Shown here: one piece after another, positions 7,969-64,000 of the stretch
How positions within the stretch are numbered: position 1 is the stretch's first letter
Layout of the letters: the number at the start of each line of letters is the position of its first letter
Assembly: GCA_016235055.1 (NCBI GenBank)
Contig: JACRMK010000046.1
Location: 34,958 to 98,957 of the forward strand
DNA length: 64,000 bases
Origin: Chloroflexota bacterium
Lineage (GTDB): Bacteria; Chloroflexota; Anaerolineae; JACRMK01
Direction: 5' to 3'
Made by a program: the position numbers and the translations under genes
The notes under the pieces: model-generated
Databases searched by the model: none
The model's input: the letters and a program-made list of their open reading frames with translations, nothing else
What the model was told of the DNA's origin: nothing

Positions 7969-10900
7969 CTACTGCCGTATCAGCGGCAAGTACAGTTTGG
8001 CGCGCTCCACGAACGTCCACGCGCGGCGCACCAGTACGAAGCCCTCATCGACATCCGCCACCTCGTACTGCGCATAGAACGGATCGGCCGCGGCCGGGTC
8101 AAGCTGCACCGTCCACGTCAGCGGCGGCGCGGCAGTCACCATCCCGCTCCAGCGGATGCTGCGCGATGGCGCATCATACGCCAGCGATGGATCACCCAGT
8201 GAGAGCAACGTCACGGAGGCCGGCAGCGTCACCGTGACGCGCGCGCCCGCGCCAAACGCCGCGTTGCTCGTCGTCAGGCTCAGTTGGTAGGTGAACGCCG
8301 CGCCGGTCAGCACGCTGCTCGGCGCGATCACCGCCGAGTCGCCGAGCGGGCCGAGCCAGCCGGCAACGCGGCCGAGCACCACCGGGCGGGCGGCCACCGG
8401 CAGCGTCTCAAATGGAAAGGCGAAATACGCCGTCTTCCAGACGCCGTTCGGCTGGCGCACCGTCACGGCCGATGGCTGAGCGCCGTTCCCGAGGTACGCG
8501 GCCGTGGCCGTCACGGTTGGCAGCACGTAGTCGCTAAAATTGTTGAACGGGAACGTCAGCGTGTATGGGCCGAGCCCATCGGCGATCGGGCTGTACCGCG
8601 CACCGCCAACGCTGGTGACGGTCACGTCGTTGGTGTACGACAGCACGCCGAGGTACGACGGCGCAAAGCTCGACTGCCCGTAGCGCACATCCAGATAGTC
8701 CTGCGACGTGAAGAACAATCGTCCCCCAGCGTTGAGATAGGCCGCCAGCACTGCTTCGTCGTTCGCGCTCAGCGGGTCGAACCAGTCGTAGCCGGTGAAC
8801 CAGACGACCAGCGGGTACATCTGCATCGTCGCGGTCGACGGCCCCGGTCCGCCGCGCGTGTCGAAAACATCGTACGCGATGCCGGCCGCAGCCAGCGTGG
8901 CGGTGTATTTCTGCTCCTGCTCGTACCAGCGGTCGTCGTCCACCAGCAGCAGCGGCGCGGGCGTCTTGCTGGTAACGGTGCGTGTCTGCGCCACGCTCGG
9001 ATCGCCCTGCGCCTGCACGGCCAGTTGCGCCTGATCCGATGTGTTGCGCGCGGCGTCGGTCGGAATCGTCGTGCGCAGTTCCAGCGCGCGTATTTCGCAC
9101 GCGCCCAGCGTCAGCGGCGATCCAAGCGGCGCGCCGCCGCTCCAGAGCGCGGTCGGCCACGCCTGGCCGGATAGCGCGAGGTCGAATGCATCGGACACGA
9201 TGCCGGTATTGCGCACGCTCACGGCATGCGTCACGGTGGCGCCCGGCACGCCGACGGCGATCGACGCGTCGTCGGTCACGCTCAGGCCGTGCACGGCCGG
9301 CGCTGCCGTCAGCCAGTTGATGAGCTGCTGCAGCGCAGCCTGGCGCGTGGCGGCCGGGCCCGCACCCTCGAATCCGAACGACAAGTACGCCGCGCGGTAC
9401 GGCACACAGGTGTCCACGACCAGCCCGGCGATATCGCCGGTGGCATAGCGCGCCAGCGGCCGCGCCGTGGCGTCGAGCGGCTGGACGGCGTCCGTGGAGC
9501 CCTGGTTGTGCGCGCTGTCGGTCGTGTTGAGCGTGAACGTGATGCCCTGCAGCGCTTCCCCGCTTATGCCTGCGACGTGGGTAGTGGCCACGGCATCGGC
9601 CGCAAACTGCCCATGCAGCCGATACGGGAAGTAGTCGTAGCCGGCGAAGCCCGGCCCGGCGTCCCAGAAGGCGATGTCCTGCCCCGATAGCAGCATCCGC
9701 CCGCCGTAGTTGAAGTACTCGATCAGCGTCTGCCCCGCGCCGATATAGTCCGGCGAATCGAACGGCGCCGACCAGACCACGATGTCATACGCCTGCAGGG
9801 TCGTCGTGGCCGGCGCGCCGTGCAGCGGATCGCCGATAGCGTGCACGGCGTATGGATAACCGAGCGCGTCGAGCGCATCGCGATAGTACTGGATCTGGCT
9901 GCCCATGTACCACGCGCCACTGTCCACCAGCAGGATGGTCGGGGCGGACGCCAGCGCGAAATCGACCGTGAGCAGCGCGTTGGCCGTCAGGCTGACCGTC
10001 GCCGTCAGCGCGCGGTGGGCCCAGGCCGATGTGCGCAGCGTGTAGTCGCCGACCGGCAGGGTCAATGTGTAGAAGCCATCGGCGCCGGCGGTCGTCGTGG
10101 CCGGCGTGCCGGATGCCTGCACGCTGGCGCTGATCGGTTGGCTGCTCGCTACGTCGGTCAGGCGCCCGCGCACGACGCCGGACGGCAGGCGCAGCAGCGT
10201 CGCGTCGAGTGTCGTGGCCTGCGCGGTCGTGATCGCAAGCGCGTTGTTGAGCGCTGGCGCAAAGCCGTATGCAAACACCGAAACCCAGTAGTCGCCCGGC
10301 GCCAGCGGTAGGCGGTATACGCCGTCGGGGCCGCTGCTCGCCGTCGCGGTGCGGCTCAGGCGGTCGGTCGCGACGATCTGCGCGCCGGCCAGTGGTGCGC
10401 CTTCGGCCGTGATCGTGCCGCTCAGCGTGCCGTAGGCCGTCGCCTGCAAAACCGCCTGGAAGGCGTCCACGCGGCCCCAGCCGGTATTGTTGTTCGGCAC
10501 GCTCGTCGTCAGCGGCAGGGCCGTGGATGTGATCAGATAGTATGTGCCATCGACCGTCAGGCTGGGCTGCGCCTGCCGGAGCAGCGCGGCCAGGCCCGCC
10601 ACATGCGGCGCGGCCATCGAGGTGCCGCTCATCAATTGGTAACCACCGCCGGGGACGCTGGAGCGCACACCGACGCCGGGGGCCGACACATCCGGCTTGA
10701 TGTGACCATCGATCGGCGACGGGCCGCGCGACGAGAAGTAGGCCACCTGGTCGGCGCTGTCGGTCGCGCCGACGCCGAACGACTCGGGGTACGAAGCGGG
10801 CGCGCCAACCGTGCCCAAGCCCATGACGCCGTTGTTGCCGTTGGAGAAGACCTGCACGATGCCGGCCGCGCGCACGGCCCGCACATCGTCCTGGAAGACG

Positions 10901-34754: not shown

Positions 34755-35606
34755 ATGGCAATCAAGACGGTCGGTGTTGTCGGCTGCGGTTTGATGGGGT
34801 CGGGTATTGTCGAAGTCTGCGCGAAGAGCGGCTACGACGTCATTGTAATGGAGATGAACGACGGGCTGTTGAAGCGCGGGCTGGAGCGCATCGATGCCAG
34901 CCTGGCCAAAGCGGTTGAGCGCAAGAAGCTGGACGCCGCCGCCCGCGACGGCATCCGGGCGCGCATCCGTGGCACCACCGGTTTCGCCGATTTCCGCGAC
35001 GCCGATTTCGTCGTCGAGGCGGCGATCGAGAACCTCGACGAGAAGAAGCAGATCTTCGCGCAGCTCGACACAGTCACCCGGCCGGACGCAACTCTGTCGT
35101 CGAACACGTCGTCGCTGTCGATCATCGACATGGCGTCGGCGACGAAGCGGCCGGCGCAGGTGCTCGGCATGCACTTCTTCAATCCGGTGCCGGTCATGCC
35201 GCTGCTCGAGATGGTGCGCTCGTTCCTGACGAGCGAGGCGACCTACCAGGCGGCGCGGGCTTTCGGCGAATCGCTCGGCAAGACCGTGGTCGTGGCGAAG
35301 GACAAGCCGGGCTTCATCGTCAACGCGTTGCTGATCCCGTACCTGCTCGACGCGATCCGCATGGTCGAAGAGGGCGCCGCGTCACGCGAGGATATCGACG
35401 CCGGCATTCATCTGGGGCTGAACCACCCGATGGGCCCGCTGACGCTGACGGACTTCGTGGGGCTGGACACGACGCTCTACGTGGCCGACGCGATGTTCGC
35501 GGAGACGAAGAACGCGCGTTACGCCGCGCCGACGCTGCTGCGCCGCATGGTCACGGCCGGGCACATGGGCCGCAAGAGCGGCAAGGGGTTCTACGAGTAT
35601 GAGTGA
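34755..35606 (+). CDS. hbd: 3-hydroxyacyl-CoA / 3-hydroxybutyryl-CoA dehydrogenase
   Basis: N-terminal VGVVGCGLMGSGI Rossmann motif; AAGGAGAA upstream of internal ATG; C-terminal dimerisation domain. Confidence 0.9.
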   Translation: MAIKTVGVVGCGLMGSGIVEVCAKSGYDVIVMEMNDGLLKRGLERIDASLAKAVERKKLDAAARDGIRARIRGTTGFADFRDADFVVEAAIENLDEKKQIFAQLDTVTRPDATLSSNTSSLSIIDMASATKRPAQVLGMHFFNPVPVMPLLEMVRSFLTSEATYQAARAFGESLGKTVVVAKDKPGFIVNALLIPYLLDAIRMVEEGAASREDIDAGIHLGLNHPMGPLTLTDFVGLDTTLYVADAMFAETKNARYAAPTLLRRMVTAGHMGRKSGKGFYEYE

Positions 35607-38202: not shown

Positions 38203-41200
38203 TCAGATCAGGCGGCGATCCAAAGCGGCGCGCATGGCAGCCGAACGAGAGGGCACGTCCAGCTTGGCGTAGACCGACCGCAGATGACCGCGCACGGTAT
38301 GCACGCTGATAACCAGCCGGTCCGCGATTTCCTTGTCGCTTAGGCCCTGAGCGAGCCAGCGCAGCACCTCCATCTCGCGCGCGGTCAGGGGTTCGCCGGG
38401 CGTTGGCGGTGCACCTTCGTCAACGGGCCCGCCATGCGACTCGGGAGAGGGGTGTTGCCGCTTGGGACCCAGTGCCTCCAGCGCGGCGCGCGCGCGCGCC
38501 GCGTCGGGCAGCGCCTGCACTTCCTCAAAACCGGCCAACGCGCGGGAAAGATAGTCGTGCGCGCGGACAGCGTCGCCGCGCGCGCGTTCGAGGTCGCCGA
38601 GGTCGGCCAACGTGCGACCCGTTTGCCAGGGGGTGCCTAATTGCTGGAACAGCGCCAGTGCCTGCTGGAAGCGTGTTTCCGCTGAGGGGTATTCGCCGGC
38701 CAGCCGGTGAGCCACGCCCCAGGCGCGATGGGCGACGGCCTGATAGAGCACATGGCCGTAGCGCATGGCCAGCGCTTCGGCGAGCGGCGCGTACCTGCGC
38801 AGCATCGGCTCGTCGGCCCGCTGCGCCGCCGTGTCGGCCATTGTGGCGAACAGATCATGGTCGCCGGGCCAGCTTCCGTTATTAAACACCTGTGGGTTGT
38901 TCGCAAATCGCTTCTGCAATGCCCCTTCCAGGTGCTGCTCCACGAGGGCGAACTCGCCCTCCGCCATTAACGGCAGCGCATGTCAGTAGTGCTGGGTGCG
39001 TCCCCACCCATCGGGCCCGACGACCGCGCCCATGATCTGGGCCGACTCGAGTCGCAGCCGGCGCGCGCGTTCGGAATCCCCGCGCATCGCATAGGCGCAC
39101 GAGAAAATGGCGGTGTGCCAGCAAGGATATTGGAACAGGTCCTGCGTGGAGCGCCGCTGCAGCGCAACCATGATTTGCTCGCTGCGGAGGACCTCGTTCC
39201 AGCGGTCGAGGCGCAGCCAAGACAGTGCCTGGCTCGCAAGTGTATGGAGGCAAAGGTCCAATGCGCGAATCTGCCCGGCCTGCGTCTGTGCTTCATCCAG
39301 ATACCGCAGCGCGTCTGTGTATTCGCCCACCGACGCCAACGCCGCGCCCAATTGCATCAAAATCCGCACACGCTCGCGCTGATCGCGGAAACGGGCATCG
39401 CGGCTCAGCGCCAACCGGCGCTGCACCAACTCTATTTGCTCGCGCAGCATGCCCTGCGCGCCATAGACCAGGGCCAGCGCGTCGAGCGCAACCGACGTGA
39501 CGACAGGGTCGTCCAGTTTTTCGGCCATATCCACGCCGGCGCGGGCGTACCGCTCGGCAGCCTCCCAGTCTGCGCTCGCTTGCCGGATCCACATGGCCGA
39601 GGAAAGGGTGGCCAGCAAGTAAACCGTTTCCACATGCGGCGGTTCCACGCTCGCTATTTCCCATGCAACGGCCAGCTGGGCCCGCGCATCGACCCGGAAG
39701 CGCTGGAAGTCGGCGCCCGCGCGCAGATTGAGCACGGCGTTCCCAAACTTGCGGCGCAAGCGAACGGCAAGCATCTTGTCACCGCTGGCCAGCGCGTCCC
39801 ACAGCGCGATCGCCTGCGCGAAGAGCGGAACCGCCAGCAAGGTGTCTCCCTGTTGGTCGTATATGTCGGCCAATTGCTCGACCACGGCGGCTTGCGTGTC
39901 CGGTTTGCGGCTGCCCTGCAGCCAGTCCAGCGCGCGGTGCAAATGCTGCGCCGCCGCGTCATACGCATGGACGGACTGAGCACGCCGCGCCGCCTTGCAG
40001 GCGTAATCGATCGCTTTGTCGCGCTCTCCGGCCGCGCTGAAGTGATAAGCCAGCGCTTCGTCGTCATCCGGATGCCGGCCCTCGATCGCCATCGCAACCT
40101 GGCGGTGAAGATGCTGGCGGCGCGGGGCCACAATATCTTCCTGCAGCGCCGACGGGATGAGCGCATGGGCAAAGACGGACAGGCTGTGCCCGCCTCGCCG
40201 CGTCTCCCGGATCAGCCCCGCGCGCCCGGCGGTCTCCAGGGCATCGATCAGCCGATCGGCCTCCAGGTCGCCCGCAATACGCAGCAGGTCAACGTCAAAT
40301 TCCCTGCCGATGATCGCCGCCAGGCGCAAGACATCCTGCACAGCAGCCGGCAGTTTCTCCACGCGCGCCCGGACCACGGCGCGCACGTTCTGCGGGATGT
40401 GGGACTGTTCCGGCGAGGGCCAGTGCCAGCGTTCTCCTGTGCGATACAGCGTGCCGTCTTCGAGCAGTCCTTTGACAACCTCCTCAATAAAGAAGGGGTT
40501 GCCTTCGGTCTGGCGATACAGGTATTCCAGAAATGCGGGCTCGACCTCGCCGCCAAAAGGCGCGGCCAGCAGCTCGCGAGCCTGCTCGAGGGTGAAGCGC
40601 GACACGCCGAGGTGCGTGCTCAGCCGCTCGCGATTGAGGTCCAGCAGCAGGTGGCCGAGGGCCGCGTTGTCGTGCAGCTCCTCCTCTCGGTAGGTCAGGA
40701 CCACCATGAGACGCATCTGGAATGCGCGGCGAGCCACGTGGCGCAGCAGGTCGAGGGTGCCTCGATCAGCCCAGTGCACGTCCTCAATAGCGAGCACGAC
40801 GGGCGTGCGCGCGGCCGGCGCAGCGCACAACTCCGCGACGCTTTCAAAGATGCGCTCTCGCTCCGAGAGCGGATCGAGCGTGGGATTTGGAGCTATGGCC
40901 GGATAGCGTGCACGCAGCGCCGGCGCGAGTGTAACGAGGTCAGCCAGGGCGAATGCGGGGAGACGCAATTCCTCGCTGGACTGCTCTAAGGCTTGCCGGA
41001 TGAACTGGGCAATGGGAGCATACGGCGTGCCGCCTTCGGCATGGCAGTCGCAGATGAACGCGCGTGCGCCGGCGCGGGACGCCCGGGAGGTGAATTCGCG
41101 CACCAGGCGCGTCTTGCCGACACCCGGCTCGCCGCTCACGAGCAGCGTATGACCTTCGCCGTCCAGCACTCGCCCGAACACGGCGTCGGCCTCGGCCAAC

Positions 41201-41253
41201 TCCCGCGCACGTCCAACAAATGGGCTGCGTAGCAGGCGTTCCAGCATTGGCAT
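38203..41253 (-). pseudogene. Large LuxR-family regulator (N-terminal AAA/NTPase, helical repeats, C-terminal LuxR HTH) interrupted by one in-frame TGA
   Basis: Walker A GEPGVGKT near N-terminus; LuxR HTH (EIADRLVISVHTVRGHLRSVYAKL) at C-terminus; ORFs 38983..41253 and 38203..38967 are in the same frame, separated by TGA at 38983-38985 plus 5 sense codons. Confidence 0.7.
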
Positions 41254-41792: not shown

Positions 41793-42485
41793 CTAGCCGC
41801 CGCTGCGGCGGCCGGGCAGTCCCGCAGAGTCTTTCGGTGCCGTGCGCATCTTTTCCATCATCCGCATGCGCACCTGCGCCAGCGCGTGCTTGAGCGGCGT
41901 CACGCGCAACAGCAGCAGTAACGCGAGCACCGTGCCGTACACCAGCGGCAGGCCGACGTTGCCTTGCAAACGCAGGAAGTCGCCTTTGACCGATAGAACG
42001 AAGTGCACGACCACCAGCGGCGCAATCAGATAGACCAGCTTGTGCAGGCGCGTCCAGCCTTTGCCAAGCCGTTTCATCCAGTAGCGGAACGACGTGACCG
42101 CCAGCGGCACCAGCAGCAGGAACGCCGTCGTGCCGATGATGATGTACCACTTGCTGCCGACGTCGGCCCAAATCAACCCGAAATCGAACGTGTAGTCCAC
42201 CCCGACGAACGCCAGCAGGTGCAGGCTGGCGTACATGAAGCCATAGAGCCCCAGCGCCTTGCGGCGCCGCAGCACCGCCTTCCAGCCGCCGATCGAGGCC
42301 AGCGGCGTGCAGGCCAGCGACAGCAGCAGGAAGGTCAGCGCGACCAGCCCCGTGCGCTGCTCGATCGCCTGGATCGGGTTGGATGTCAGGTTGCGCGCCA
42401 GCGCATCGGCAGCCAGCCACGCCAGCGGCAGCCAGCCGCCGATGTGGACGAGCGCCTGCAGCGGGTCAGGCAAGTGATGTTTCAT
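41793..42485 (-). CDS. msrQ: Protein-methionine-sulfoxide reductase heme-binding subunit MsrQ (YedZ-like)
   Basis: 230 aa from internal ATG, 6 TM helices, conserved His residues for heme b; immediately downstream of msrP. Confidence 0.85.
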   Translation of the reverse strand: MKHHLPDPLQALVHIGGWLPLAWLAADALARNLTSNPIQAIEQRTGLVALTFLLLSLACTPLASIGGWKAVLRRRKALGLYGFMYASLHLLAFVGVDYTFDFGLIWADVGSKWYIIIGTTAFLLLVPLAVTSFRYWMKRLGKGWTRLHKLVYLIAPLVVVHFVLSVKGDFLRLQGNVGLPLVYGTVLALLLLLRVTPLKHALAQVRMRMMEKMRTAPKDSAGLPGRRSGG

Positions 42486-42535
42486 GACCGGACGTAGACC
42501 TGGCGGGTTTGCAAAACCCGCGAGGTCTTTCTCGC

Positions 42536-43507
42536 TCAATAGTTCTTCCGCAAGTCCAGCCCCGCGTAGAGGCCGGCGACCTGCTCGGCATAGCCGTTGA
42601 ACGGCTGCGTCGTCCGCCGGCGCAATTCGCCGATGCGCCGCTCGCTGCCCTGCGACCAGCGCGGGTGATTGACCTCCGGATTCACATTAGCGTAGAAGCC
42701 ATATTCATTCGAGGCAATCGTGCTCCACATCGTCTTCGGCTGCGTGTCGGTTAACTCGATCTTGACGACCGCCTTGATCGACTTGAACCCGTACTTCCAC
42801 GGCACGACCAGCCGGATGCCGCCGCCGTTCGCGGCCGGTAGTTCGCCGCCGTACAGGCCGGTCGCCAGCAGCGTCAGGTCGTTCATCGCCTCGTCGATAC
42901 GCAGCCCTTCCTGGTACGGCCAGGGGTAGAACGGCGAGCGCTGGCCGGGGAAGTCGTCCGGCTTGAAGAGCGTCTCGAAGCGCACATATTTCGCGGCTGC
43001 CGTCGGTTCGACCGCCTTCAGCAGCTTCGCGAGCGGGAAGCCGACCCACGGGATGACCATGCTCCACGCTTCGACGCAGCGCAGGCGGTAGATGCGCTCC
43101 TCGGGCTGGAAGCGCTTGATCATCTCCTCGACGGCGTACTTGCCCGGCTTGCCTACCAGGCCCGACACCTGCACGTCCCACGGCGACGTCTTGAAGTTGG
43201 CGGCGCGCGGCGCAACGCCCTCTTTCTCTTCCGTGAACTCGTAGTAGTTGTTGTAGTGCGTGATGTCCTGGTACGACGTCGCCGGATCGCCCAGTTCGTC
43301 CTTGCGCGCGGACGCGCCCGGCTGGGCCGCAGGCGGCGCCGTGGCCGAAGGCGCCGGCTGCGCGTCGTTGCCTGCCAGCGGACCGCACGCCGCAAGTGCC
43401 ATGCTGCCCGCCACCACGCCGGTGGCCTTGATAAACTCGCGCCGCGAGAGGTACACCGCCTTCGGCGTGACCTCGGATTCCGCGATGCGCGGATAACGGC
43501 TCTTCAT
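42536..43507 (-). CDS. msrP: Protein-methionine-sulfoxide reductase catalytic subunit MsrP (YedY-like molybdopterin oxidoreductase)
   Basis: Twin-arginine signal (SRREFIK), sulfite-oxidase-fold motifs (ITHYNNYYEF, RLRCVEAW, GGGIRLVVPWKYGFKSIKAV). Confidence 0.9.
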   Translation of the reverse strand: MKSRYPRIAESEVTPKAVYLSRREFIKATGVVAGSMALAACGPLAGNDAQPAPSATAPPAAQPGASARKDELGDPATSYQDITHYNNYYEFTEEKEGVAPRAANFKTSPWDVQVSGLVGKPGKYAVEEMIKRFQPEERIYRLRCVEAWSMVIPWVGFPLAKLLKAVEPTAAAKYVRFETLFKPDDFPGQRSPFYPWPYQEGLRIDEAMNDLTLLATGLYGGELPAANGGGIRLVVPWKYGFKSIKAVVKIELTDTQPKTMWSTIASNEYGFYANVNPEVNHPRWSQGSERRIGELRRRTTQPFNGYAEQVAGLYAGLDLRKNY

Positions 43508-43531: not shown

Positions 43532-44083
43532 CTAAGCCGGCTCATTCAGCAATGTCACGATGGCGGCTTCCAGTTCATCATACCGCCCCTCGCCGATATG
43601 CGTGAATCGAATGCGGCCGTGCTTGTCGATCAGGTACAACGTCGGCCAGAACTGATTGCGATACGCGCGCCACGTCGCACCGTCATTGTCCTGCGCCACC
43701 GCATATGGCACGCCCAACCGGGCCACGGCATCCTTCAGATTGCCAAGGTCGGCCTCGTAGCCGAACTCCGGGAAATGGTTGCCGATGATCGTCAGCCCTT
43801 GCGGGCCGTACTGCGCATGCCAGCCCCTCAACGAGGGGATCACATTACGGCAGTTGATTCAGCCAAACGTCCACATATCGAGCAGCACGACGCGCCCGCG
43901 CAGATCGGCCAGCCGCAGCGGGCGGTCGGTGTTGAGCCAGACCGTGTTGGTCAGCTCCGGCGCCGGGCCGAGATCAACCAGTTGCGCCTTTGGCGCGCCG
44001 GCGGCTTGCGGCAACTGCGCAGCCGCCTGCGGAGCGCACGCCGCCAAACATACGAGGGCCAACAGCCAGATAGCATGTCTCAT
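43532..44083 (-). CDS. TlpA/DipZ-type thiol:disulfide oxidoreductase lipoprotein with in-frame TGA at first active-site position (candidate selenoprotein, U-x-x-C)
   Basis: ORFs 43859..44083 and 43532..43843 are in the same frame; TGA at 43859-43861 gives ...[19 protein letters not shown]..., matching the WTYTCINC redox motif of this family with Sec in place of Cys; AGGAGG 6 nt upstream of ATG; lipobox LAAC. Confidence 0.7.
43803..43850 (-). promoter_or_regulatory. Candidate SECIS-like hairpin downstream of the in-frame UGA
   Basis: mRNA CCCCUC-guu-GAGGGG hairpin about 20 nt 3' of UGA, nested in a longer GCCGUA...UACGGC pairing; not verified against a SECIS model. Confidence 0.3.
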
Positions 44084-44150
44084 GGTCGCCTCCTGAAAAC
44101 ATACTAACCGGTTGACATTACGAAAGTATTACCCGGCGCTGAATGGCCGC

Positions 44151-45383
44151 TTACGGCAGCGTAAAGCGGAACGTCGTCCCGGCACCCGGTTCGCTCGCGA
44201 CGCTGATGTCGCCGCCGTGCGCCTGCACCAGCCCGCGCGCGATCGCCAGCCCCAGCCCGGAACCGCCGGTCGCGCGACTGCGCGACTTCTCGCCGCGGTA
44301 GAACTGCTCGAACACGCGCGCCAGATCCTCGGTGCGAATCCCCTCCCCGCTGTCGCTGATGCTCACGCCAACCTGGCCGCCCTCGCGTGCCGCCTGCACG
44401 ACCACGCGCCCGCCGGCCGGCGTGTGCCGCAGGCCATTGCCGACCAGGTTGCTCAGCACGCGACCAATGCGTGCCGCGTCCATCGTGACCGGATCCACAC
44501 CGGGCGCGACAGCCCCTTCCAGCACGACGCCCTGGCGAGCCGCCATGGCGGAAAAGCTTTCCAGCGTGTCGGACACCAGGTCGGCGAGCGAATTCGGCGC
44601 GCGGTCCAGCCGCAGGCCGCCCGCGTCGATCTGGGCCATCTGGAACAGGTCGTCAATCAGCGCCGACAGCGCGCGCACGTCGCGCTGCGCGCCTGCCAGG
44701 TACCGGCGCGCCGTCTGCGGATCGTCCACCACGTCGTCGGCCAGCGCCTCGACAACCGCACGGATCGACGCGAGCGGGGTCTGCAGATCATGGCCCACCC
44801 AGGCGATCAGGTCAGCGCGGAGCCGCGCGACCTCCTGCTGGCGCTCGGCCGCTTCCTGCAACTGCGCCGCCATGCGGTTGAAGGCGCGTGCCAGCGATGC
44901 CACCTCGTCGGTGCCGTGCGCCTCGACGCGCACGCCGAGCTCGCCCCCGGCCACCGCCTGCGCCGCGGACTCGACCTGCCGGATGCGGTCGGTCACAGCG
45001 CTGGATAGAAAATATCCGAGCGCCATCGCCATACCACCGGCAAAGACCAGCAGGATCGTCGCCAGCGCCAGATCATGCGCGCTGGCGAACATCAGGCGCG
45101 CAGTCAGCCATACATTGACGAACGTCAGCACGCTGGACAGGGCATGCCCGGCCAGCAGCGCCCATCGCAGCGTCGGCGCGTACGACAGCCAACCCAGCCG
45201 GTAGGCCGCAAAAGCCGCCGCGCCGGAAATGATCGCCGTCACGCCCAGGAACGCCGTCATCAGCCCGAGCTCGGCCGGCGGCGGCTGCATGACGAGCGTA
45301 AACAGCGCCAGCGCCGCCAGGGTGGCGATCAGGACGCCGGCGGCATAGCGCGCGGCCAGTGGTATGCGAGTGATAGCGCTCAT
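44151..45383 (-). CDS. Sensor histidine kinase (HAMP-HisKA-HATPase)
   Basis: Two N-terminal TM helices; H-box EVARLRADLIAWVGHDLQTPL; N, G1, G2 boxes (GLGLAIAR, GAGTTF); ATGA overlap with response-regulator gene. Confidence 0.85.
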   Translation of the reverse strand: MSAITRIPLAARYAAGVLIATLAALALFTLVMQPPPAELGLMTAFLGVTAIISGAAAFAAYRLGWLSYAPTLRWALLAGHALSSVLTFVNVWLTARLMFASAHDLALATILLVFAGGMAMALGYFLSSAVTDRIRQVESAAQAVAGGELGVRVEAHGTDEVASLARAFNRMAAQLQEAAERQQEVARLRADLIAWVGHDLQTPLASIRAVVEALADDVVDDPQTARRYLAGAQRDVRALSALIDDLFQMAQIDAGGLRLDRAPNSLADLVSDTLESFSAMAARQGVVLEGAVAPGVDPVTMDAARIGRVLSNLVGNGLRHTPAGGRVVVQAAREGGQVGVSISDSGEGIRTEDLARVFEQFYRGEKSRSRATGGSGLGLAIARGLVQAHGGDISVASEPGAGTTFRFTLP

Positions 45384-46069
45384 GGTTCGAACTTGTACCC
45401 CACGCCCCACACGGTCAGCAGGCGGCGCGGATTGGAGGCGTCGGCCTCGATCTTTTCGCGCAGACGCCGCACGTGCACCGTCACCGTGCCTGGGTCGATG
45501 TATTCCGCGCCACCCCACACGCGCTCCAGCAGTTGATCGCGCGTGAACACCTGGCGCGGGTGTCGTGCGAACAGGTAGAGCATGTCAAACTCCCTGGCCG
45601 TGAGTATGGCCGGCGCGCCGGCAACCGTGACGCTGCGCGCACGTGGGTCCACGCACAGGTCGCCATGCTGGATGGCGCGCTCGCCGTCGGCGCCCTTGTC
45701 TCCGCCGGCGCGGCGCAGCACAGCGCGCACGCGACTGACCAGCTCTTGCGGGCTGAACGGCTTAACCATGTAGTCGTCGGCGCCCATCTCCAGTCCGGCA
45801 ATGCGGTCAATCTCCTCGCGTCGCGCGGTGAGCATGATGATCGGCACGTCGCTCTGCTCGCGCAGCCAGCGGGTGAGCGTGTAGCCGTCCAGACCCGGCA
45901 GCATCAGATCGAGCACGAGCAGAGCGGGCAGGCGCTGCGACAGCCACGTACGCGCCGACAGACCGTCCGCCGCGATGTGAACGGTGTAGCCCGAGCGCCG
46001 GAGGTATAAGCCGATCACTTCAGCGATGCTCGGTTCATCTTCAACGACAAGGATTGTTTTCTCGGACAT
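45380..46069 (-). CDS. OmpR-family response regulator (REC plus winged helix)
   Basis: ILVVEDEP, phospho-acceptor region LLVLDLMLPGLDG, C-terminal ...LTVWGVGYKF winged-helix signature. Confidence 0.9.
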   Translation of the reverse strand: MSEKTILVVEDEPSIAEVIGLYLRRSGYTVHIAADGLSARTWLSQRLPALLVLDLMLPGLDGYTLTRWLREQSDVPIIMLTARREEIDRIAGLEMGADDYMVKPFSPQELVSRVRAVLRRAGGDKGADGERAIQHGDLCVDPRARSVTVAGAPAILTAREFDMLYLFARHPRQVFTRDQLLERVWGGAEYIDPGTVTVHVRRLREKIEADASNPRRLLTVWGVGYKFEP

Positions 46070-46259: not shown

Positions 46260-47024
46260 ATGCGCAAAGAGATAGCAACCGTCGTGTTGGGATTAACAAT
46301 GATACTCGCGGCTTGCGGGCCGACCCCCACACCCGCCGCCATGATGCAAGCCGCGATGCCAACGCCTGACGCAATGATGGCCAAGCCGACGCCCGATGCG
46401 ATGATGGCCAAGCCGACGCCCGATGCCATGATGGCCAAGCCGACGCCCGACGCCATGATGGCGCGCCCAACACCCGACGCGATGATGGCGCACCCAACAC
46501 CCGACGCCATGATGGCGCACCCAACACCCGACGCGATGATGGCGCATTCGACCCCGGATGCCATGATGCAAGCCCCGGCCTGGTTTGGCGCATCGCTGAC
46601 CGATGTGCGCACCGGTCAGACGTTCTCGCTCAACGGCTTCAAAGGCAAGGTGGTGCTGGTCGAAACGATGGCGCAATGGTGTCCGAGTTGCCGCACGCAG
46701 CAGACGCAGGTGAAAGACCTGCGCGCGATGTTTGCCGGGCGCGATGATCTGGTGACGATCGCGCTCGACGTGGATCCGAATGAGCAGGCCGCCGACCTGA
46801 AGAAATACGTGCAGGCCAACGGCTTCGAAGGGTTCTACGGCATCGCGCCCGCCGCCGTGGCGCGCGAGATCGGCAATCTTTATGGCGCGCAATTCCTGAA
46901 TCCGCCGTCCACGCCGATCCTGATTGTGGACCGCCACGGCCTGGCGCATCCCCTGCCGTTCGGCATCAAGAGCGCACGCGATCTGGCGAGCGCCATCGAG
47001 CCGTACCTCAAGGACGCCATGTAA
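46260..47024 (+). CDS. TlpA/ResA-like thioredoxin-fold lipoprotein with tandem nonapeptide linker
   Basis: Lipobox ILAAC; seven to eight repeats of A[KRH]PTPDAMM; redox motif WCPSC; AAGGAG upstream. Confidence 0.85.
   Translation: MRKEIATVVLGLTMILAACGPTPTPAAMMQAAMPTPDAMMAKPTPDAMMAKPTPDAMMAKPTPDAMMARPTPDAMMAHPTPDAMMAHPTPDAMMAHSTPDAMMQAPAWFGASLTDVRTGQTFSLNGFKGKVVLVETMAQWCPSCRTQQTQVKDLRAMFAGRDDLVTIALDVDPNEQAADLKKYVQANGFEGFYGIAPAAVAREIGNLYGAQFLNPPSTPILIVDRHGLAHPLPFGIKSARDLASAIEPYLKDAM
46341..46560 (+). repeat. 27-bp tandem repeat array inside the tlpA-like gene (coding, in frame)
   Basis: GCCAAGCCGACGCCCGATGCGATGATG-type unit repeated about 8 times with third-position and K/R/H variation. Confidence 0.8.
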
Positions 47025-47088: not shown

Positions 47089-47757
47089 ATGGAAACGATT
47101 CTGACCGCGATCGGCATTGGCCTGTTGGCGACGACCAGCCCGTGCGTGTTCCCGCTCTATCCCGGGTTTCTCGCCTATATCGGTGGGGGGCCAGTGGCGC
47201 CGAGCCGCGCCGGGCGCTACACGCTGGGCGTGTTCGTGTTGGCGGGCGTGCTGACCATGATGCTCGCACTGGGTGCGCTAATCGCGGCGCTATCCGTCTC
47301 GGTCGGCCGCGCGCTCTCCCTGCTCGTGCCGCTGGCCGACGGCCTGATCGTATTGCTGGGCGTGCTGTTGTTGCTGGGCGCCAACCCGTTCAAGGCGCTG
47401 CCGCAGGTACGTGTGCCGGCGCTGTCGCACCCCTTCGCCAACGCATTCGTCTATGGCTTGTTGTATGGACCGATCGCCCTGCCGTGCGCGGGTCCATTGC
47501 TGGTCGGCCTCTTCGCGTTTTCGCTGACCGCGACGGAGTTCGTCTCGAAACTGGGAGTCTTTCTGGGCTTCGGGTTCGGCTTCGGCTTGCCGTTGCTGGC
47601 GCTTTCGTTTCTGTCCGGCGCCGCCCAGCGCGTCATCACGCGCGCCTTCGCGCGTCATAGCCGGGCGATCAACCGCGCGAGCGGCAGCCTGTTGGTCGGC
47701 GTGGGAGCGTACGATCTCTGGTCGAACTGGACGCTGATCAGCGCGTACCTCGCCTGA
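47089..47757 (+). CDS. ccdA: Cytochrome c-type biogenesis protein CcdA (DsbD-like transmembrane electron transporter)
   Basis: 222 aa, 6 TM helices, two conserved Cys in TM1 and TM4 (TSPCVFPLYP, LPCAGP); GGGAGGG upstream; perfect 30-bp palindrome between tlpA and ccdA. Confidence 0.85.
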   Translation: METILTAIGIGLLATTSPCVFPLYPGFLAYIGGGPVAPSRAGRYTLGVFVLAGVLTMMLALGALIAALSVSVGRALSLLVPLADGLIVLLGVLLLLGANPFKALPQVRVPALSHPFANAFVYGLLYGPIALPCAGPLLVGLFAFSLTATEFVSKLGVFLGFGFGFGLPLLALSFLSGAAQRVITRAFARHSRAINRASGSLLVGVGAYDLWSNWTLISAYLA

Positions 47758-48338: not shown

Positions 48339-49283
48339 CTACCCGCCCGCGCAGATGCTCATGTTCGGATAGAACTGCTTGCAGATGCGCGGCACCGACG
48401 GGCCGAGGATCACCAGGCCCAGCGCCGGCAGCAGCATCAGCACCAGCACCACGCTCATCTTGACCGGCGCGCGCTGCGCCTCTTCCTCGGCGCGCTGGCG
48501 CCGCTGAATGCGCATCATGTCGGACTGCACGCGCAGCACCTTGGCGATATTCACACCCAATTGCTCGGCCTGCAGGATGGCCGCCACAAAGCTGGACAAC
48601 TCCGGCAGGCCGGCGCGCGCCGCCATATCGCGCATCGCTTCGGAGCGCGTCTTGCCGATCTGCACCTCCACCAGCATCTGCGCCAGCCCGCGCGCCATCT
48701 CGTCGTCCCGCTCGCGCGCGACGCGCGCCATGGCCGCCTCCAGGCCAAGTCCGGCTTCCACGCTGACCGTGATCAGGTCAATCGCATCCGGCAGCGCGCG
48801 GCGAATCAAATGCTGGCGGGCGCGAATGCGGCTGTTCAGCCAGAGCACCGGCGCATAGAATCCCAGGCCAACCACCGCCAGGAAAACCAGGATCTGGTTG
48901 GCCAGCGGCAAATTGAGCACCCCGAAAAGCAGTAAGCCGAAGCCGCCGAATAGCGCCGCCAACACGACCCGCATCCCCAGGAAATCGGCCGGCGCCCAGC
49001 GAAACGGGTTGCCCGCCATATCGAGCTTGAGCCGGATCGCATCCAGGTTGACCTGCGGCATCAGGCGCAGCAGCAGTCGCGCCAGGTTGCGCAGTCCGGG
49101 CCGGATCACACGCTCATACAGCGGCTGGTCCAGATCCACCTCGTCCAGCGAGCGGACGCGGCGCCCGTAGTTTTCGAGGCGCGCCTGCACGCGATCGCGG
49201 CGCGTAGTTACCGCCAGGCCCGCGAAGACCAGAAAGATGCCGTAGGCCAGCGACAGCGCGATAATGACAATCTCGGTGGGCAT
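48339..49283 (-). CDS. tadC: Tad pilus inner-membrane platform protein TadC (T2SS F-family)
   Basis: 314 aa, N-terminal TM, cytoplasmic GspF-like domain, two C-terminal TM helices. Confidence 0.85.
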   Translation of the reverse strand: MPTEIVIIALSLAYGIFLVFAGLAVTTRRDRVQARLENYGRRVRSLDEVDLDQPLYERVIRPGLRNLARLLLRLMPQVNLDAIRLKLDMAGNPFRWAPADFLGMRVVLAALFGGFGLLLFGVLNLPLANQILVFLAVVGLGFYAPVLWLNSRIRARQHLIRRALPDAIDLITVSVEAGLGLEAAMARVARERDDEMARGLAQMLVEVQIGKTRSEAMRDMAARAGLPELSSFVAAILQAEQLGVNIAKVLRVQSDMMRIQRRQRAEEEAQRAPVKMSVVLVLMLLPALGLVILGPSVPRICKQFYPNMSICAGG

Positions 49284-49292
49284 GGGGTTGCG

Positions 49293-50267
49293 TCAAACCT
49301 CGATACTGATAATCCGGCGGATGACCAGCATGGCCGAGCCGACCAGCACCAGCACTGTGAAGAAGATCAGTTGCCCGCACAGCGAGTTGAAGAACTGTCC
49401 CATGTACGCGGGGCTGATGACAAAGAGCAGCACGGTCAGCAGGAACGGCATGGCGCCGACAAAATAGCCGGATGCCTGCTGCTGCGTGGTCAGGATGCGC
49501 ACCTCACCCTTGATGCGGATGCGCTCGCGGATCGTGTGGTTGATCGTGTCGAGAATGAGCGAGAGGTTGCCGCCGACCTCGTGCTGGATCAGCAGCGCGG
49601 TGACCAGCAGGTCGAGGTCTTCATTGCGGATGCGATTGCGCATGTTTGAGATCGCCTGATCGAACGCCACGCCAAGGCCGATCTCGCGCACCACCCGGCC
49701 GAACTCCTCCGAGATCGGCGGCTGCAGTTCCCGCGACAACAACTCCATGGACTGCAAGAGGCTGTAGCCGGACCGCAGCGAGGTGGACATCAGGCTGATC
49801 GCGTCGGGCAGTTGCCCGCTGAAGGCGCTGCGCCGCTGGTACTGGCGGAACACCAGGTACCAGCGCGGGCCCAGGTAGCCCAGGATGGCGCACGGCAGCG
49901 CCACATACCACTGCTTGAAGATGAGGAGTCCCAGCGCAAACGCGAGCAGCACGCCGGTGACCATCACGACGATGAACTCGCCGGGCGTCAGCTTCAGGTC
50001 GGCCTGCGCCAGCTCCAGCTCCAGCGTGTGGCCGCGACCGCGGCGCGTCAACTGGCGGTCGATGTCGCGCGTCAGGCGCCCGCGCGCGCGCGCGCCGCCC
50101 GTCACGTGCCCGCCGACGACGCTGGCGCGCATCGCATAGTGTTCCATGCGGTCGTCCACGTCGTACGGGTTGCGCGATAGCGCGCGCGCCAGCCCGGCAA
50201 AGAACAGGACGATCCCCAGCATGGCGAGGCCGCCGACGACCAGCGCCGCAACGGGTAGCCCGCCCAT
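49293..50267 (-). CDS. tadB: Tad pilus inner-membrane platform protein TadB (T2SS F-family)
   Basis: 324 aa with the same topology; start codon directly abuts cpaE-like stop. Confidence 0.85.
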   Translation of the reverse strand: MGGLPVAALVVGGLAMLGIVLFFAGLARALSRNPYDVDDRMEHYAMRASVVGGHVTGGARARGRLTRDIDRQLTRRGRGHTLELELAQADLKLTPGEFIVVMVTGVLLAFALGLLIFKQWYVALPCAILGYLGPRWYLVFRQYQRRSAFSGQLPDAISLMSTSLRSGYSLLQSMELLSRELQPPISEEFGRVVREIGLGVAFDQAISNMRNRIRNEDLDLLVTALLIQHEVGGNLSLILDTINHTIRERIRIKGEVRILTTQQQASGYFVGAMPFLLTVLLFVISPAYMGQFFNSLCGQLIFFTVLVLVGSAMLVIRRIISIEV

Positions 50268-62733: not shown

Positions 62734-64000
62734 TTACGCCGGTCGCCAGCAGAGGTCCGGCTTGCGCGCTGCCGTCGCCTCGTCCAGCCGCGAGACCGGC
62801 GTGGTGTGCGGCGCAGAGCGCACGAGCTCGGGGTTCTCCTCGGCCTCGCGCGCGATCTGCAGCATCACCTCGCAGAAGCGGTCGATCGTCTCCTTGCTCT
62901 CCGTCTCGGTCGGCTCGACCATCAGCGCTTCCTCGACGACCAGCGGGAAGTAGACCGTCGGCGGGTGAATGCCGAAGTCGATCAGCCGCTTGGCGATGTC
63001 GAGCGTGCGCACGTTGTTCTTCGCCTGGCGCTTGCCGGAAAAGACGACCTCGTGGTAGCAGGTGCGGTCGAACGGCAGGTCGTACGCGCCCTTGAGGCGC
63101 TCCTTGATGTAGTTCGCGTTCAGCACGGCGATCTGGCTCACCTCGCGCAGGCCGTCCTCGCCGTGTGAGCGGATGTACGCGTAGCCGCGCACCAGGTTGG
63201 CGAAGTTGCCGTGGAACGCGCGCACCCGGCCGATCGACAGCGGCCGGTCGTTGTCGAGCGTGTAGCGGCCATCCTTGAATGCGACGACCGGCGCCGGCAG
63301 GAACGGCGCCAGCGCCTTGGAAACGCTTGTGCCGCACGCGCCCGGCCCGCCGCCGCCGTGCGGCACGCCGAACGTCTTGTGCAGGTTGTAGTGCAGGATG
63401 TCGAAGCCGACCTCGCCCGGCTTGCAGATGCCGAGCAGGGCGTTCATGTTCGCGCCGTCGCCGTACACCAGGCCGCCCGCCGCGTGCACCAGTCGATTGA
63501 TCTGCTCGATGTGCTGGTCGAAAAGGCCAACCGTCGACGGATTGGTGATCATCATGCCCGCGACCGTGTCGTCGAGCAGCGCCTTCAGCGCGTCCACGTC
63601 CACGTTGCCGTGGGCGTCCGCCTTGACGGTGACGACGCTGTAGCCGACCATCGCGGCGGTCGCCGGGTTGGTGCCGTGCGAGCTATCCGGCACGATAATT
63701 TTGGTGCGCTTCGTGTCGCCGCGCGACTTGTGATAGCCGTGGATCATCAGCACGCCGGTCAGTTCGCCGTGCGCGCCTGCCGCCGGCTGCAGCGTCGCGC
63801 CCGCGTGCCCTGCGATCTCGGCGAGCTGCTCCTGCAGTTCGTACATCATGCGCAGCGCGCCCTGCACGGTGCTCTCAGCCTGGTACGGGTGAATGCGCGC
63901 AAAGCCCGCCTGCCCGGCGATGACGTCGTTGATCTTCGGGTTGTACTTCATCGTGCACGAGCCGAGCGGATAGAACACGGTATCCACGCTGAAGTTCTTG
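62734..64000 (-). CDS. gcvPB: Glycine dehydrogenase (decarboxylating) subunit 2, GcvPB; 5' end lies beyond window
   Basis: PLP-enzyme motifs incl. [13 protein letters not shown] and LHKTF (Lys for PLP); reading frame stays open to the window edge. Confidence 0.9.

Follow-up and report, generated by a model that had tools for sequence, protein, structure and literature searches.

A Predicted Selenocysteine-Containing Redoxin Lipoprotein Encoded Next to msrPQ in Anaerolineae

The Redoxin Gene and Its In-Frame UGA Codon

The DNA considered here, referred to as the window, is a stretch of 64,000 nucleotides from a Chloroflexota bacterium of the Anaerolineae (lineage JACRMK01), corresponding to positions 34,958 to 98,957 of contig JACRMK010000046.1 in assembly GCA_016235055.1. 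Its minus strand holds, between positions 44083 and 43532, a gene for a small, redoxin-like predicted lipoprotein whose reading frame is crossed by a single TGA, and this gene is interpreted as encoding a selenoprotein in which the UGA would be decoded as selenocysteine (Sec, U). The gene and its constituent elements are the following:

43532..44083, minus strand: predicted redoxin selenoprotein gene of 183 codons including Sec75, delimited by its single frame, Pfam, PDB 2hyx, and tblastn
44089..44094, minus strand: Shine-Dalgarno sequence AGGAGG, read directly, 5 nt before the ATG at 44083
44036..44083, minus strand: predicted signal peptide with the lipobox L-A-A-C (Cys16), followed by APQ, recognized by its hydrophobic core and by motif reading
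43859..43861, minus strand: UGA codon 75, presumably read as Sec, at the first, nucleophilic position of U-I-N-C, from the comparative codon count and three assemblies
43850..43852, minus strand: codon for Cys78, the second (resolving) residue of UxxC, an invariant column in a 36-member family alignment
43819..43843, minus strand: putative bacterial selenocysteine insertion sequence (SECIS)-type hairpin within the coding sequence, from folding, covariation, and codon use
43840–43833 with 43829–43822, minus strand: core helix of this hairpin, closed by a GUU apical loop at 43832–43830, with 26 nt between the UGA and the loop

In translation, the frame opens at ATG 44083, ends at the TAG at 43534–43532 with the C-terminus LLNEPA, and has the TGA at 43861–43859 (codon 75) as its sole internal stop. 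The initial annotation had regarded two open reading frames (ORFs), 43859..44083 and 43532..43843, as halves of one frame, and both the ORF list and the translation agree with this, as no further stop lies between them. Gene callers break the redoxin into ORFs of 74 and 103 amino acids, also in the Logan contigs mentioned below; the second of these ORFs starts at GTG 43843, in front of which no Shine-Dalgarno sequence was found on reading the sequence.

The region of the redoxin was located through the response regulator and the 103-amino-acid fragment in Logan contigs of 1.7–3.4 kb, and the same gene, TGA included, is base-for-base identical in the assemblies of SRR12113394, SRR12113397, and SRR12113407. 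Because the gene is identical in the assemblies of three independent read sets, none of which has TGC or TGT at this codon, the TGA is not an assembly artefact. An alternative genetic code with UGA as a sense codon throughout the genome is ruled out as well, given that UGA serves as the normal stop for many other genes of the window, msrP among them.

Codon 75 across Relatives

A search through GTDB, with each species represented by one genome, yielded 80 related loci with identities of 57–75%, labelled nearly all as metagenome-assembled genomes (MAGs) of Anaerolineales, Anaerolineae, or Chloroflexota. The genome of the window itself is absent from the GTDB representatives, the best match having 75% identity. 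The codon aligned with codon 75 is TGA in 27 of these loci and TGC or TGT in the other 53, and it is never TAA or TAG. The TGA loci belong to different MAGs, among them PHBU01, JABFGC01, CAVQYK01, SZPK01, and JACRBJ01. With the gene of the window, the family thus amounts to 81 genes, comprising 28 Sec forms and 53 Cys forms. The residues around this codon are almost invariant over the 80 loci, reading (D/E)MWTFG-x-INC-x-x-V-(I/M)-P-S-L, and the tblastn alignments of the orthologues cross the TGA, spanning residues 1–181 with conservation on both sides of it. The earlier argument that a nonsense mutation would hardly have landed on the catalytic Cys codon by chance gains considerable weight from these counts, and the Cys-containing orthologues that were to be looked for in relatives do exist, side by side with TGA-containing ones.

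Among the 120 best database matches, 119 present Cys at the Sec position and the remaining one Leu (WTFGLINC). Since none of these 120 homologues contains U, the Sec forms of the redoxin appear to be unannotated in databases.

Elsewhere in the 81 genes, all-against-all tblastx revealed just one in-frame stop, located at a Gln codon of a Cys form (locus L057, near position 10406, plus strand). This lone TGA replaces the Gln of RNQ(F/Y)WP, for which 48 aligned relatives have a sense codon and, in contrast to the Sec codon, it is an ordinary nonsense mutation or a sequencing error.

A Covarying Hairpin Downstream of the UGA

The hairpin that had been claimed about 20 nt downstream of the TGA is indeed present 18 nt past the UGA, with an apex, CCCCUC-GUU-GAGGGG, which can be extended outward. 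The 67 nt from the UGA fold into an extended stem at −29.5 kcal/mol (z = −2.78 versus shuffles). All 28 Sec forms hold this hairpin at nucleotides 22–40, counted from the U of UGA, with stems of 8 bp in 21 of them and of six contiguous pairs in the other seven. The stem consensus of the Sec forms is AUYCCYUC/GARGGRAU, closed by a GUU loop in 27 of them and by GGU in the other. Their hairpin energies range from −8.3 to −15.7 kcal/mol, so that 28/28 lie at or below −7.5 kcal/mol, compared to 8/53 Cys forms; the mean energies are −11.8 kcal/mol for the Sec forms versus −5.2 kcal/mol for the Cys forms (Mann–Whitney p = 1.4e-10). All eight pairs are retained in five of the 53 Cys forms, and the loop-closing pair is missing in 17.

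Two stem pairs covary among the Sec forms without a single unpaired cell, namely pair 24:38 (U-A in 16, C-G in 11, and U-G in one) and pair 27:35 (C-G in 21 and U-A in seven). Overall, 95.4% of the stem cells are paired, versus 38–62% after sliding the 3' partners by one to three columns. The same pattern is visible in codon use, where the third positions of the Ile and Pro codons covary with the choice of Gly/Glu and Arg/Lys on the opposite arm. In addition, the Sec forms use fixed synonymous codons, with TCG for Ser in 28/28, TTG for Leu in 27/28, and AGG instead of CGN for Arg throughout, whereas the Cys forms drift at these Ser, Leu, and Arg codons.

The published model of bacterial SECIS (bSECIS) elements includes a stem of 4–16 bp, a loop separated from the UGA by 16–37 nt, and an energy not above −7.5 kcal/mol (PMC13188914). 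The hairpin falls within all four constraints of that model, with a 3-nt loop beginning with G-U, 6–8 bp, 26 nt, and −8.3 to −15.7 kcal/mol. The SECIS check suggested for the downstream region therefore ends with a structure that fits the published bacterial model and that covaries in the TGA forms only.

Family, Fold, and Predicted Export of the Product

With a Cys placed at the stop, the product matches the Pfam families AhpC-TSA (PF00578, 43.9 bits, cutoff 26) and Redoxin (PF08534, 32.9 bits, cutoff 26.6). Among solved structures, it is closest to the C-terminal thioredoxin-like domain of DipZ from M. tuberculosis (2hyx/5cyy), matched over residues 22–181 with E = 1.4e-41. In the alignment with 2hyx, WTFG-U-INC corresponds to WAYS-C-INC, and FWPTLYLID, in the cis-Pro region, to YWPAEYLID. 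Because WTFG-stop-INC lines up with WAYS-C-INC, the stop codon occupies the place of the first, nucleophilic Cys of CxxC; the expected alignment of U with this residue is thus found both with the Pfam AhpC-TSA/Redoxin families and with the WAYSCINC site of DipZ.

The product is predicted to be exported and lipid-anchored, and lipobox-like motifs are present in 23 of the 27 Sec loci and in 75 of the 120 database homologues.

Several narrower assignments were discarded. A peroxiredoxin (AhpC/Prx) reading was dropped on account of the thioredoxin-like WxxxUxxC site and of the lack of a visible PxxxTxxC motif. NCBIfam scores are far below the respective cutoffs for TlpA (NF047696, 29.9 bits versus 230), ResA (NF002854, 47.4 versus 170), and DsbE/CcmG (TIGR00385, 29.7 versus 123; NF011941, 24.5 versus 359), as well as for the ResA-like WAxxUGC selenoproteins (NF041054, 19.9 versus 300), the motif here being WTFGUINC. 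The redoxin family has no specific NCBIfam model. Nor is the protein a DipZ proper, as its 183 residues comprise, besides the redoxin domain, only a predicted signal peptide, and the DsbD_TM protein is a separate gene (47089–47757). The label of TlpA/DipZ type used in the initial annotation is therefore appropriate for the redoxin domain, but not in the sense of a full DipZ, since the protein is a stand-alone predicted lipoprotein without a CcdA fusion.

Genetic Neighborhood

The genes surrounding the redoxin are those described in the initial annotation (msrPQ, a two-component system, tlpA, and ccdA), as identified with Pfam and NCBIfam:

42536..43507, minus strand: msrP, molybdopterin methionine-sulfoxide reductase catalytic subunit (NCBIfam equivalog NF003767, 445.5 bits versus a cutoff of 207)
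41793..42539, minus strand: msrQ, heme-binding membrane subunit, start codon uncertain (NCBIfam NF003831, 162.9 bits versus a cutoff of 130)
44151..45383, minus strand: sensor histidine kinase with HAMP-HisKA-HATPase architecture (Pfam; a 410-amino-acid gene in the Logan contigs; position conserved)
45380..46069, minus strand: OmpR-family response regulator (Pfam Response_reg and Trans_reg_C; position conserved)
46260..47024, plus strand: second TlpA-like redoxin lipoprotein, divergent, with a WCPSC motif and a Met-rich tandem-repeat linker (Pfam AhpC-TSA/Redoxin; syntenic in many loci)
47089..47757, plus strand: CcdA/DsbD-type membrane thiol-electron transporter, a candidate for supplying reductant to the redoxins (Pfam DsbD_TM; syntenic with the second tlpA in many loci)

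The redoxin stop and the msrP start are separated by 24 nt, and no terminator-like site lies between both genes. The gene immediately following the redoxin is msrP in 64 of the 80 loci, whether these have the Sec or the Cys form. The order response regulator–histidine kinase–redoxin–msrP–msrQ, together with the divergent tlpA–ccdA pair, is kept in both forms, and most of the longer loci contain the regulator pair and the tlpA–ccdA pair. As a separate observation, the histidine-kinase orthologue upstream of one Sec-form redoxin (locus L069, near position 9381, plus strand) has an in-frame TAG at a codon that is sense in 56 aligned relatives, and may be a pseudogenised sensor or reflect a sequencing error.

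The N-terminal linker of the TlpA-like neighbor consists of approximately eight tandem nine-residue Met-Met repeats, PTPDAMMA(K/R/H), encoded around 46340–46560. A similar xAMM(D/E)KxT linker with 6–27 Met is carried by the orthologues of almost all loci examined (L002–L080), L046 having only two. The combination of a Met-rich linker with msrPQ resembles MrpX, a sacrificial Met-rich peptide paired with an MsrP homologue (PMC4436054).

Probable Selenocysteine Recoding and Alternative Explanations

Considered as a whole, these data indicate that the redoxin gene at 44083..43532 very probably encodes a genuine selenoprotein, with UGA 75 recoded as Sec, a reading to which a probability of roughly 0.88 can be given. 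Selenocysteine recoding, proposed initially as the best explanation, thus draws support from the comparison of codon 75, from the covarying hairpin, and from the three assemblies.

Several points weigh against this reading. Searches of the 64-kb window and of about 1.1 Mb of related loci turned up none of selA, selB, selD, and the tRNA-Sec gene: ARAGORN detected a tRNA-Sec neither in the window nor in any of the 27 TGA-form loci, and tblastn with E. coli SelA, SelB, and SelD had no match in the window and the 80 loci, a result that says nothing of whole genomes. No Rfam SECIS family was matched at gathering thresholds over the whole window, nor in a permissive search of 43700–43950, which returned noise alone; missing matches of this kind are not unusual for bacterial SECIS elements. 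A second selenoprotein was not found either, as all-against-all tblastx of about 1.2 Mb gave the redoxin family and off-frame noise, and a scan of the window for coding ORF pairs separated by TGA produced no further redox-type candidate. Regarding function, the two-component system is of a generic OmpR type that reaches no specific NCBIfam equivalog, and the proposed activity as reductase or scavenger, the supply of reductant by CcdA, and the co-regulation with msrPQ are deduced from neighborhood and homology. Concerning the Sec machinery in the class, the cultured Anaerolinea thermophila UNI-1 and Caldilinea aerophila appear in the compilation of Peng et al. as SelD+/SelA+/SelB+, with four and three selenoproteins, respectively (PMC5029168 supplement), and Sec-containing formate dehydrogenases have been reported from Anaerolineae-related single-cell genomes (PMC5736913).

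The split calls of 74 and 103 amino acids, the invisibility of Sec machinery in the window, and the fact that true nonsense mutations do occur in the family, such as the TGA at a Gln codon of L057, would all suit a pseudogene, that is, an ordinary Cys redoxin hit by a nonsense mutation or by a sequencing or assembly error. This possibility is effectively refuted by the comparative data, as 27 other MAGs also have TGA at this codon and no locus has TAA or TAG there, both halves are conserved in frame, a structured and covarying hairpin accompanies every TGA form, and the identical TGA appears in three independent assemblies. Hardly more credible is the existence of two small genes, one for a 74-residue lipopeptide and the other for a 103-residue protein starting at GTG 43843. 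Both ORFs exist and are called separately by automatic annotation, but the split would cut through the thioredoxin fold, parting the strand in front of the active site from the CxxC helix, so that neither half is a domain; moreover, GTG 43843 lacks a Shine-Dalgarno sequence, and each of the 53 Cys orthologues is encoded by one uninterrupted gene. A somewhat better, yet still very improbable, alternative is that the UGA is read through without Sec, with near-cognate or suppressor decoding inserting Cys or Trp, perhaps under stimulation by the hairpin. Read-through can be stimulated by a structure further downstream, scarcity of selenium can cause Cys to be mis-inserted at Sec-UGA codons, and no Sec machinery was found in the window and the related loci. 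On the other hand, the hairpin fits a SelB-type bSECIS in its G-U loop, stem length, and spacing, UGA ends other genes of the window, Anaerolineae isolates have SelA, SelB, and SelD (PMC5029168), and the site is that of the redox-active Cys, the position at which bacterial selenoproteins as a rule exchange Sec and Cys (PMC1794560).

A different kind of alternative leaves the Sec recoding untouched and changes the role of the protein, which would act like ResA, CcmG, or TlpA as a maturation factor for cytochrome c or copper centres. A ccdA gene is nearby, CcdA classically feeds cytochrome c maturation, and the redoxin has weak NCBIfam similarity to ResA, TlpA, and DsbE. Nevertheless, this role seems unlikely, since the equivalog scores are far under the cutoffs (47 versus 170, 30 versus 230, and 30 versus 123), the conserved partner in 64 of 80 loci is msrPQ rather than genes for cytochrome or cytochrome-oxidase biogenesis, and the adjacent TlpA-like protein has a Met-rich linker of the oxidant-sink kind found alongside MsrP homologues (PMC4436054).

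Proposed Mechanism and Evolution

Under the selenoprotein reading, UGA codon 75 would be recoded to Sec during translation, and the hairpin located 18–40 nt downstream would function as a bacterial SECIS that recruits SelB·GTP·Sec-tRNA(Sec) to the ribosome. The resulting 183-residue pre-lipoprotein would leave the cytoplasm and be held by a lipid anchor at Cys16 on the outer side of the cytoplasmic membrane, where it is expected to adopt a thioredoxin fold of the TlpA/DipZ-C type with the active site U75-I-N-C78, with Sec as the exposed nucleophile and Cys78 as the resolving residue.

As for its function, the odds are roughly even that the protein is an extracytoplasmic thiol/selenol-disulfide reductase or oxidant scavenger, recycled by CcdA and co-transcribed with MsrPQ in an envelope oxidant-defence module. 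The second TlpA-like protein could possibly join CcdA in the recycling of the redoxin, and the adjacent two-component system would control redoxin–MsrPQ in a module that may counter damage of the envelope by H2O2 and HOCl. A donation of electrons from the redoxin to MsrP is not proposed, because MsrP is a molybdoenzyme fed by MsrQ. More tentatively, and with the balance somewhat against it, the locus could represent an undescribed but widely conserved oxidant-defence module of the Anaerolineae envelope, in which a lipid-anchored selenoprotein, MsrPQ, CcdA, and a TlpA-like lipoprotein with a sacrificial Met-rich linker are placed under one two-component system, and frequent switching from Sec to Cys among close relatives, even inside a single MAG bin, adapts the module to the available selenium.

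When the 81 proteins are placed in a neighbor-joining tree built after masking the Sec/Cys position, both states are interleaved, and Fitch parsimony requires at least 14 changes; the tree is drawn from a short protein and carries no support values, so that this count is indicative only. The Sec and Cys versions thus appear to interconvert readily within Anaerolineae. Since the Sec forms share one homologous hairpin, which five Cys forms keep intact, the simplest history would be that of an old Sec form with repeated Sec-to-Cys reversions.

Both states even coexist in one MAG bin, JBGSPW01 (Thermoflexales), which contains a Cys copy (L012, 136–3694) and a Sec copy (L077, 9759–13339) with 86% DNA identity over a 3.6-kb block comprising redoxin, msrPQ, and regulators. 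The Cys copy keeps seven of the eight stem pairs of the hairpin. These copies are either paralogous operons or two related populations binned together, and in the former case the Cys copy could be a selenium-independent backup.

Relationship to Known Systems

DipZ from M. tuberculosis shares W-x-x-x-C-I-N-C and (Y/F)WP...YLID with the redoxin, but has Cys where the redoxin would have Sec. In DipZ, a CcdA-like membrane domain is fused on the N-terminal side and a further domain follows at the C-terminus, the crystallised chain comprising 352 residues. Unlike DipZ, the redoxin is free-standing, with 183 residues, and ccdA forms a gene of its own at a distance of about 3 kb.

The PDB search also matched the solved chains 2yp6 and 4hqz, described as "thioredoxin family protein", which are Etrx chains of S. 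pneumoniae. In the Etrx1/2–CcdA–MsrAB2 system of this bacterium, surface lipoprotein redoxins work with CcdA and a methionine sulfoxide reductase. The likeness lies in the presence of a TlpA-like redoxin that is, or here is predicted to be, a lipoprotein, of CcdA, and of a repair enzyme for methionine sulfoxide at the cell surface. However, Etrx reduces the thiol-dependent MsrAB and contains no Sec, whereas MsrP is a molybdoenzyme and, because it is fed by MsrQ, the redoxin is not expected to pass electrons to it directly.

In E. coli, envelope oxidant repair involves the module HprSR–hiuH–msrPQ. In Azospira suillum, the Met-rich peptide MrpX works with the MsrP homologue YedY1 in the defence against hypochlorite (PMC4436054). 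The Anaerolineae locus resembles these two systems in having msrPQ beside a signalling system and a Met-rich extracytoplasmic polypeptide. However, neither of them has a selenoprotein or a redoxin in the operon, and the regulator found here is of a generic OmpR type and not demonstrably an HprSR.

Thiol-oxidoreductase-like selenoproteins with a UxxC motif are the commonest kind of bacterial selenoprotein (PMC1794560). Those catalogued include the "Prx-like thiol:disulfide oxidoreductase" (PF00578, UxxC) and the "Redoxin family protein" (PF08534, UxxC), as well as the "Thiol:disulfide interchange protein" and the "UGC-containing TlpA family" (PMC2398784, PMC13188914). The Anaerolineae redoxin would fall under the Prx-like (PF00578) or the Redoxin (PF08534) UxxC label, with which it shares the Pfam families, Sec at the first Cys of CxxC, numerous Cys homologues, and a hairpin inside the coding sequence; in both cases, moreover, the prediction is computational and derives from Sec/Cys pairs. 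The earlier UxxC members are mostly from Deltaproteobacteria or marine metagenomes, whereas the present one is a DipZ-C-like predicted lipoprotein from Anaerolineae in a conserved operon with msrPQ and a two-component system. The catalogued families (examples WP_010940744.1 and HEU0032618.1) were compared by their descriptions, and the Anaerolineae redoxin may belong to the same subfamily as these or to another. The ResA-like WAxxUGC or UGC TlpA selenoproteins (NF041054; cd02966, PMC13188914) share the TlpA/ResA-like thioredoxin fold and lie outside the cytoplasm, as is predicted for the redoxin, but their motif is UGC and that of the Anaerolineae redoxin is U-x-x-C, so that it is not a member. 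A search of the literature found no paper on a DipZ-C-like or msrPQ-linked selenoprotein.

Other Features of the Window

Between 38203 and 41253 on the minus strand, an AAA_16 plus TPR ORF (38983–41253) and a TPR plus GerE/LuxR ORF (38203–38967) lie in the same frame and are parted by a single TGA at 38983–38985. The region looks like one large LAL/MalT-type regulator split by a stop, or two real genes. Sec is not suspected at this TGA, because its context (GWGRTQHY*HALPLMAE, the asterisk marking the stop) is not redox-like.

Just past the redox cluster, two tandem genes with T2SSF domains (48339–50267, minus strand) encode platform proteins of a type II secretion, type IV pilus, or Tad-like system and are unrelated to the redoxin. 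A 92-nt "tRNA-Ala(GGC)" reported by ARAGORN at 63283–63374 (minus strand) is not confirmed by Rfam and lies inside the strongly coding ORF 62734–63987, whose G+C content at third codon positions is 0.93; it is probably a false positive.

Significance

In terms of annotation, gene callers split or truncate the redoxin gene as well as no fewer than 27 of its orthologues in public MAGs, and each of these genes should be annotated as a single selenoprotein. The family offers many close Sec/Cys pairs with one covarying SECIS and, in consequence, a dataset for studying how a SECIS is embedded in a coding sequence and how Sec and Cys interconvert, in addition to training material for selenoprotein predictors. 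The general picture of bacterial selenoproteomes is left unchanged, as UxxC redoxins are already the dominant type, and a specialist would not be surprised by one more. For the Anaerolineae, the finding would place selenium chemistry at the cell surface of a lineage common in soil, sludge, and groundwater, beside MsrPQ, and suggests a testable link between the supply of selenium and the tolerance of the envelope to oxidants.

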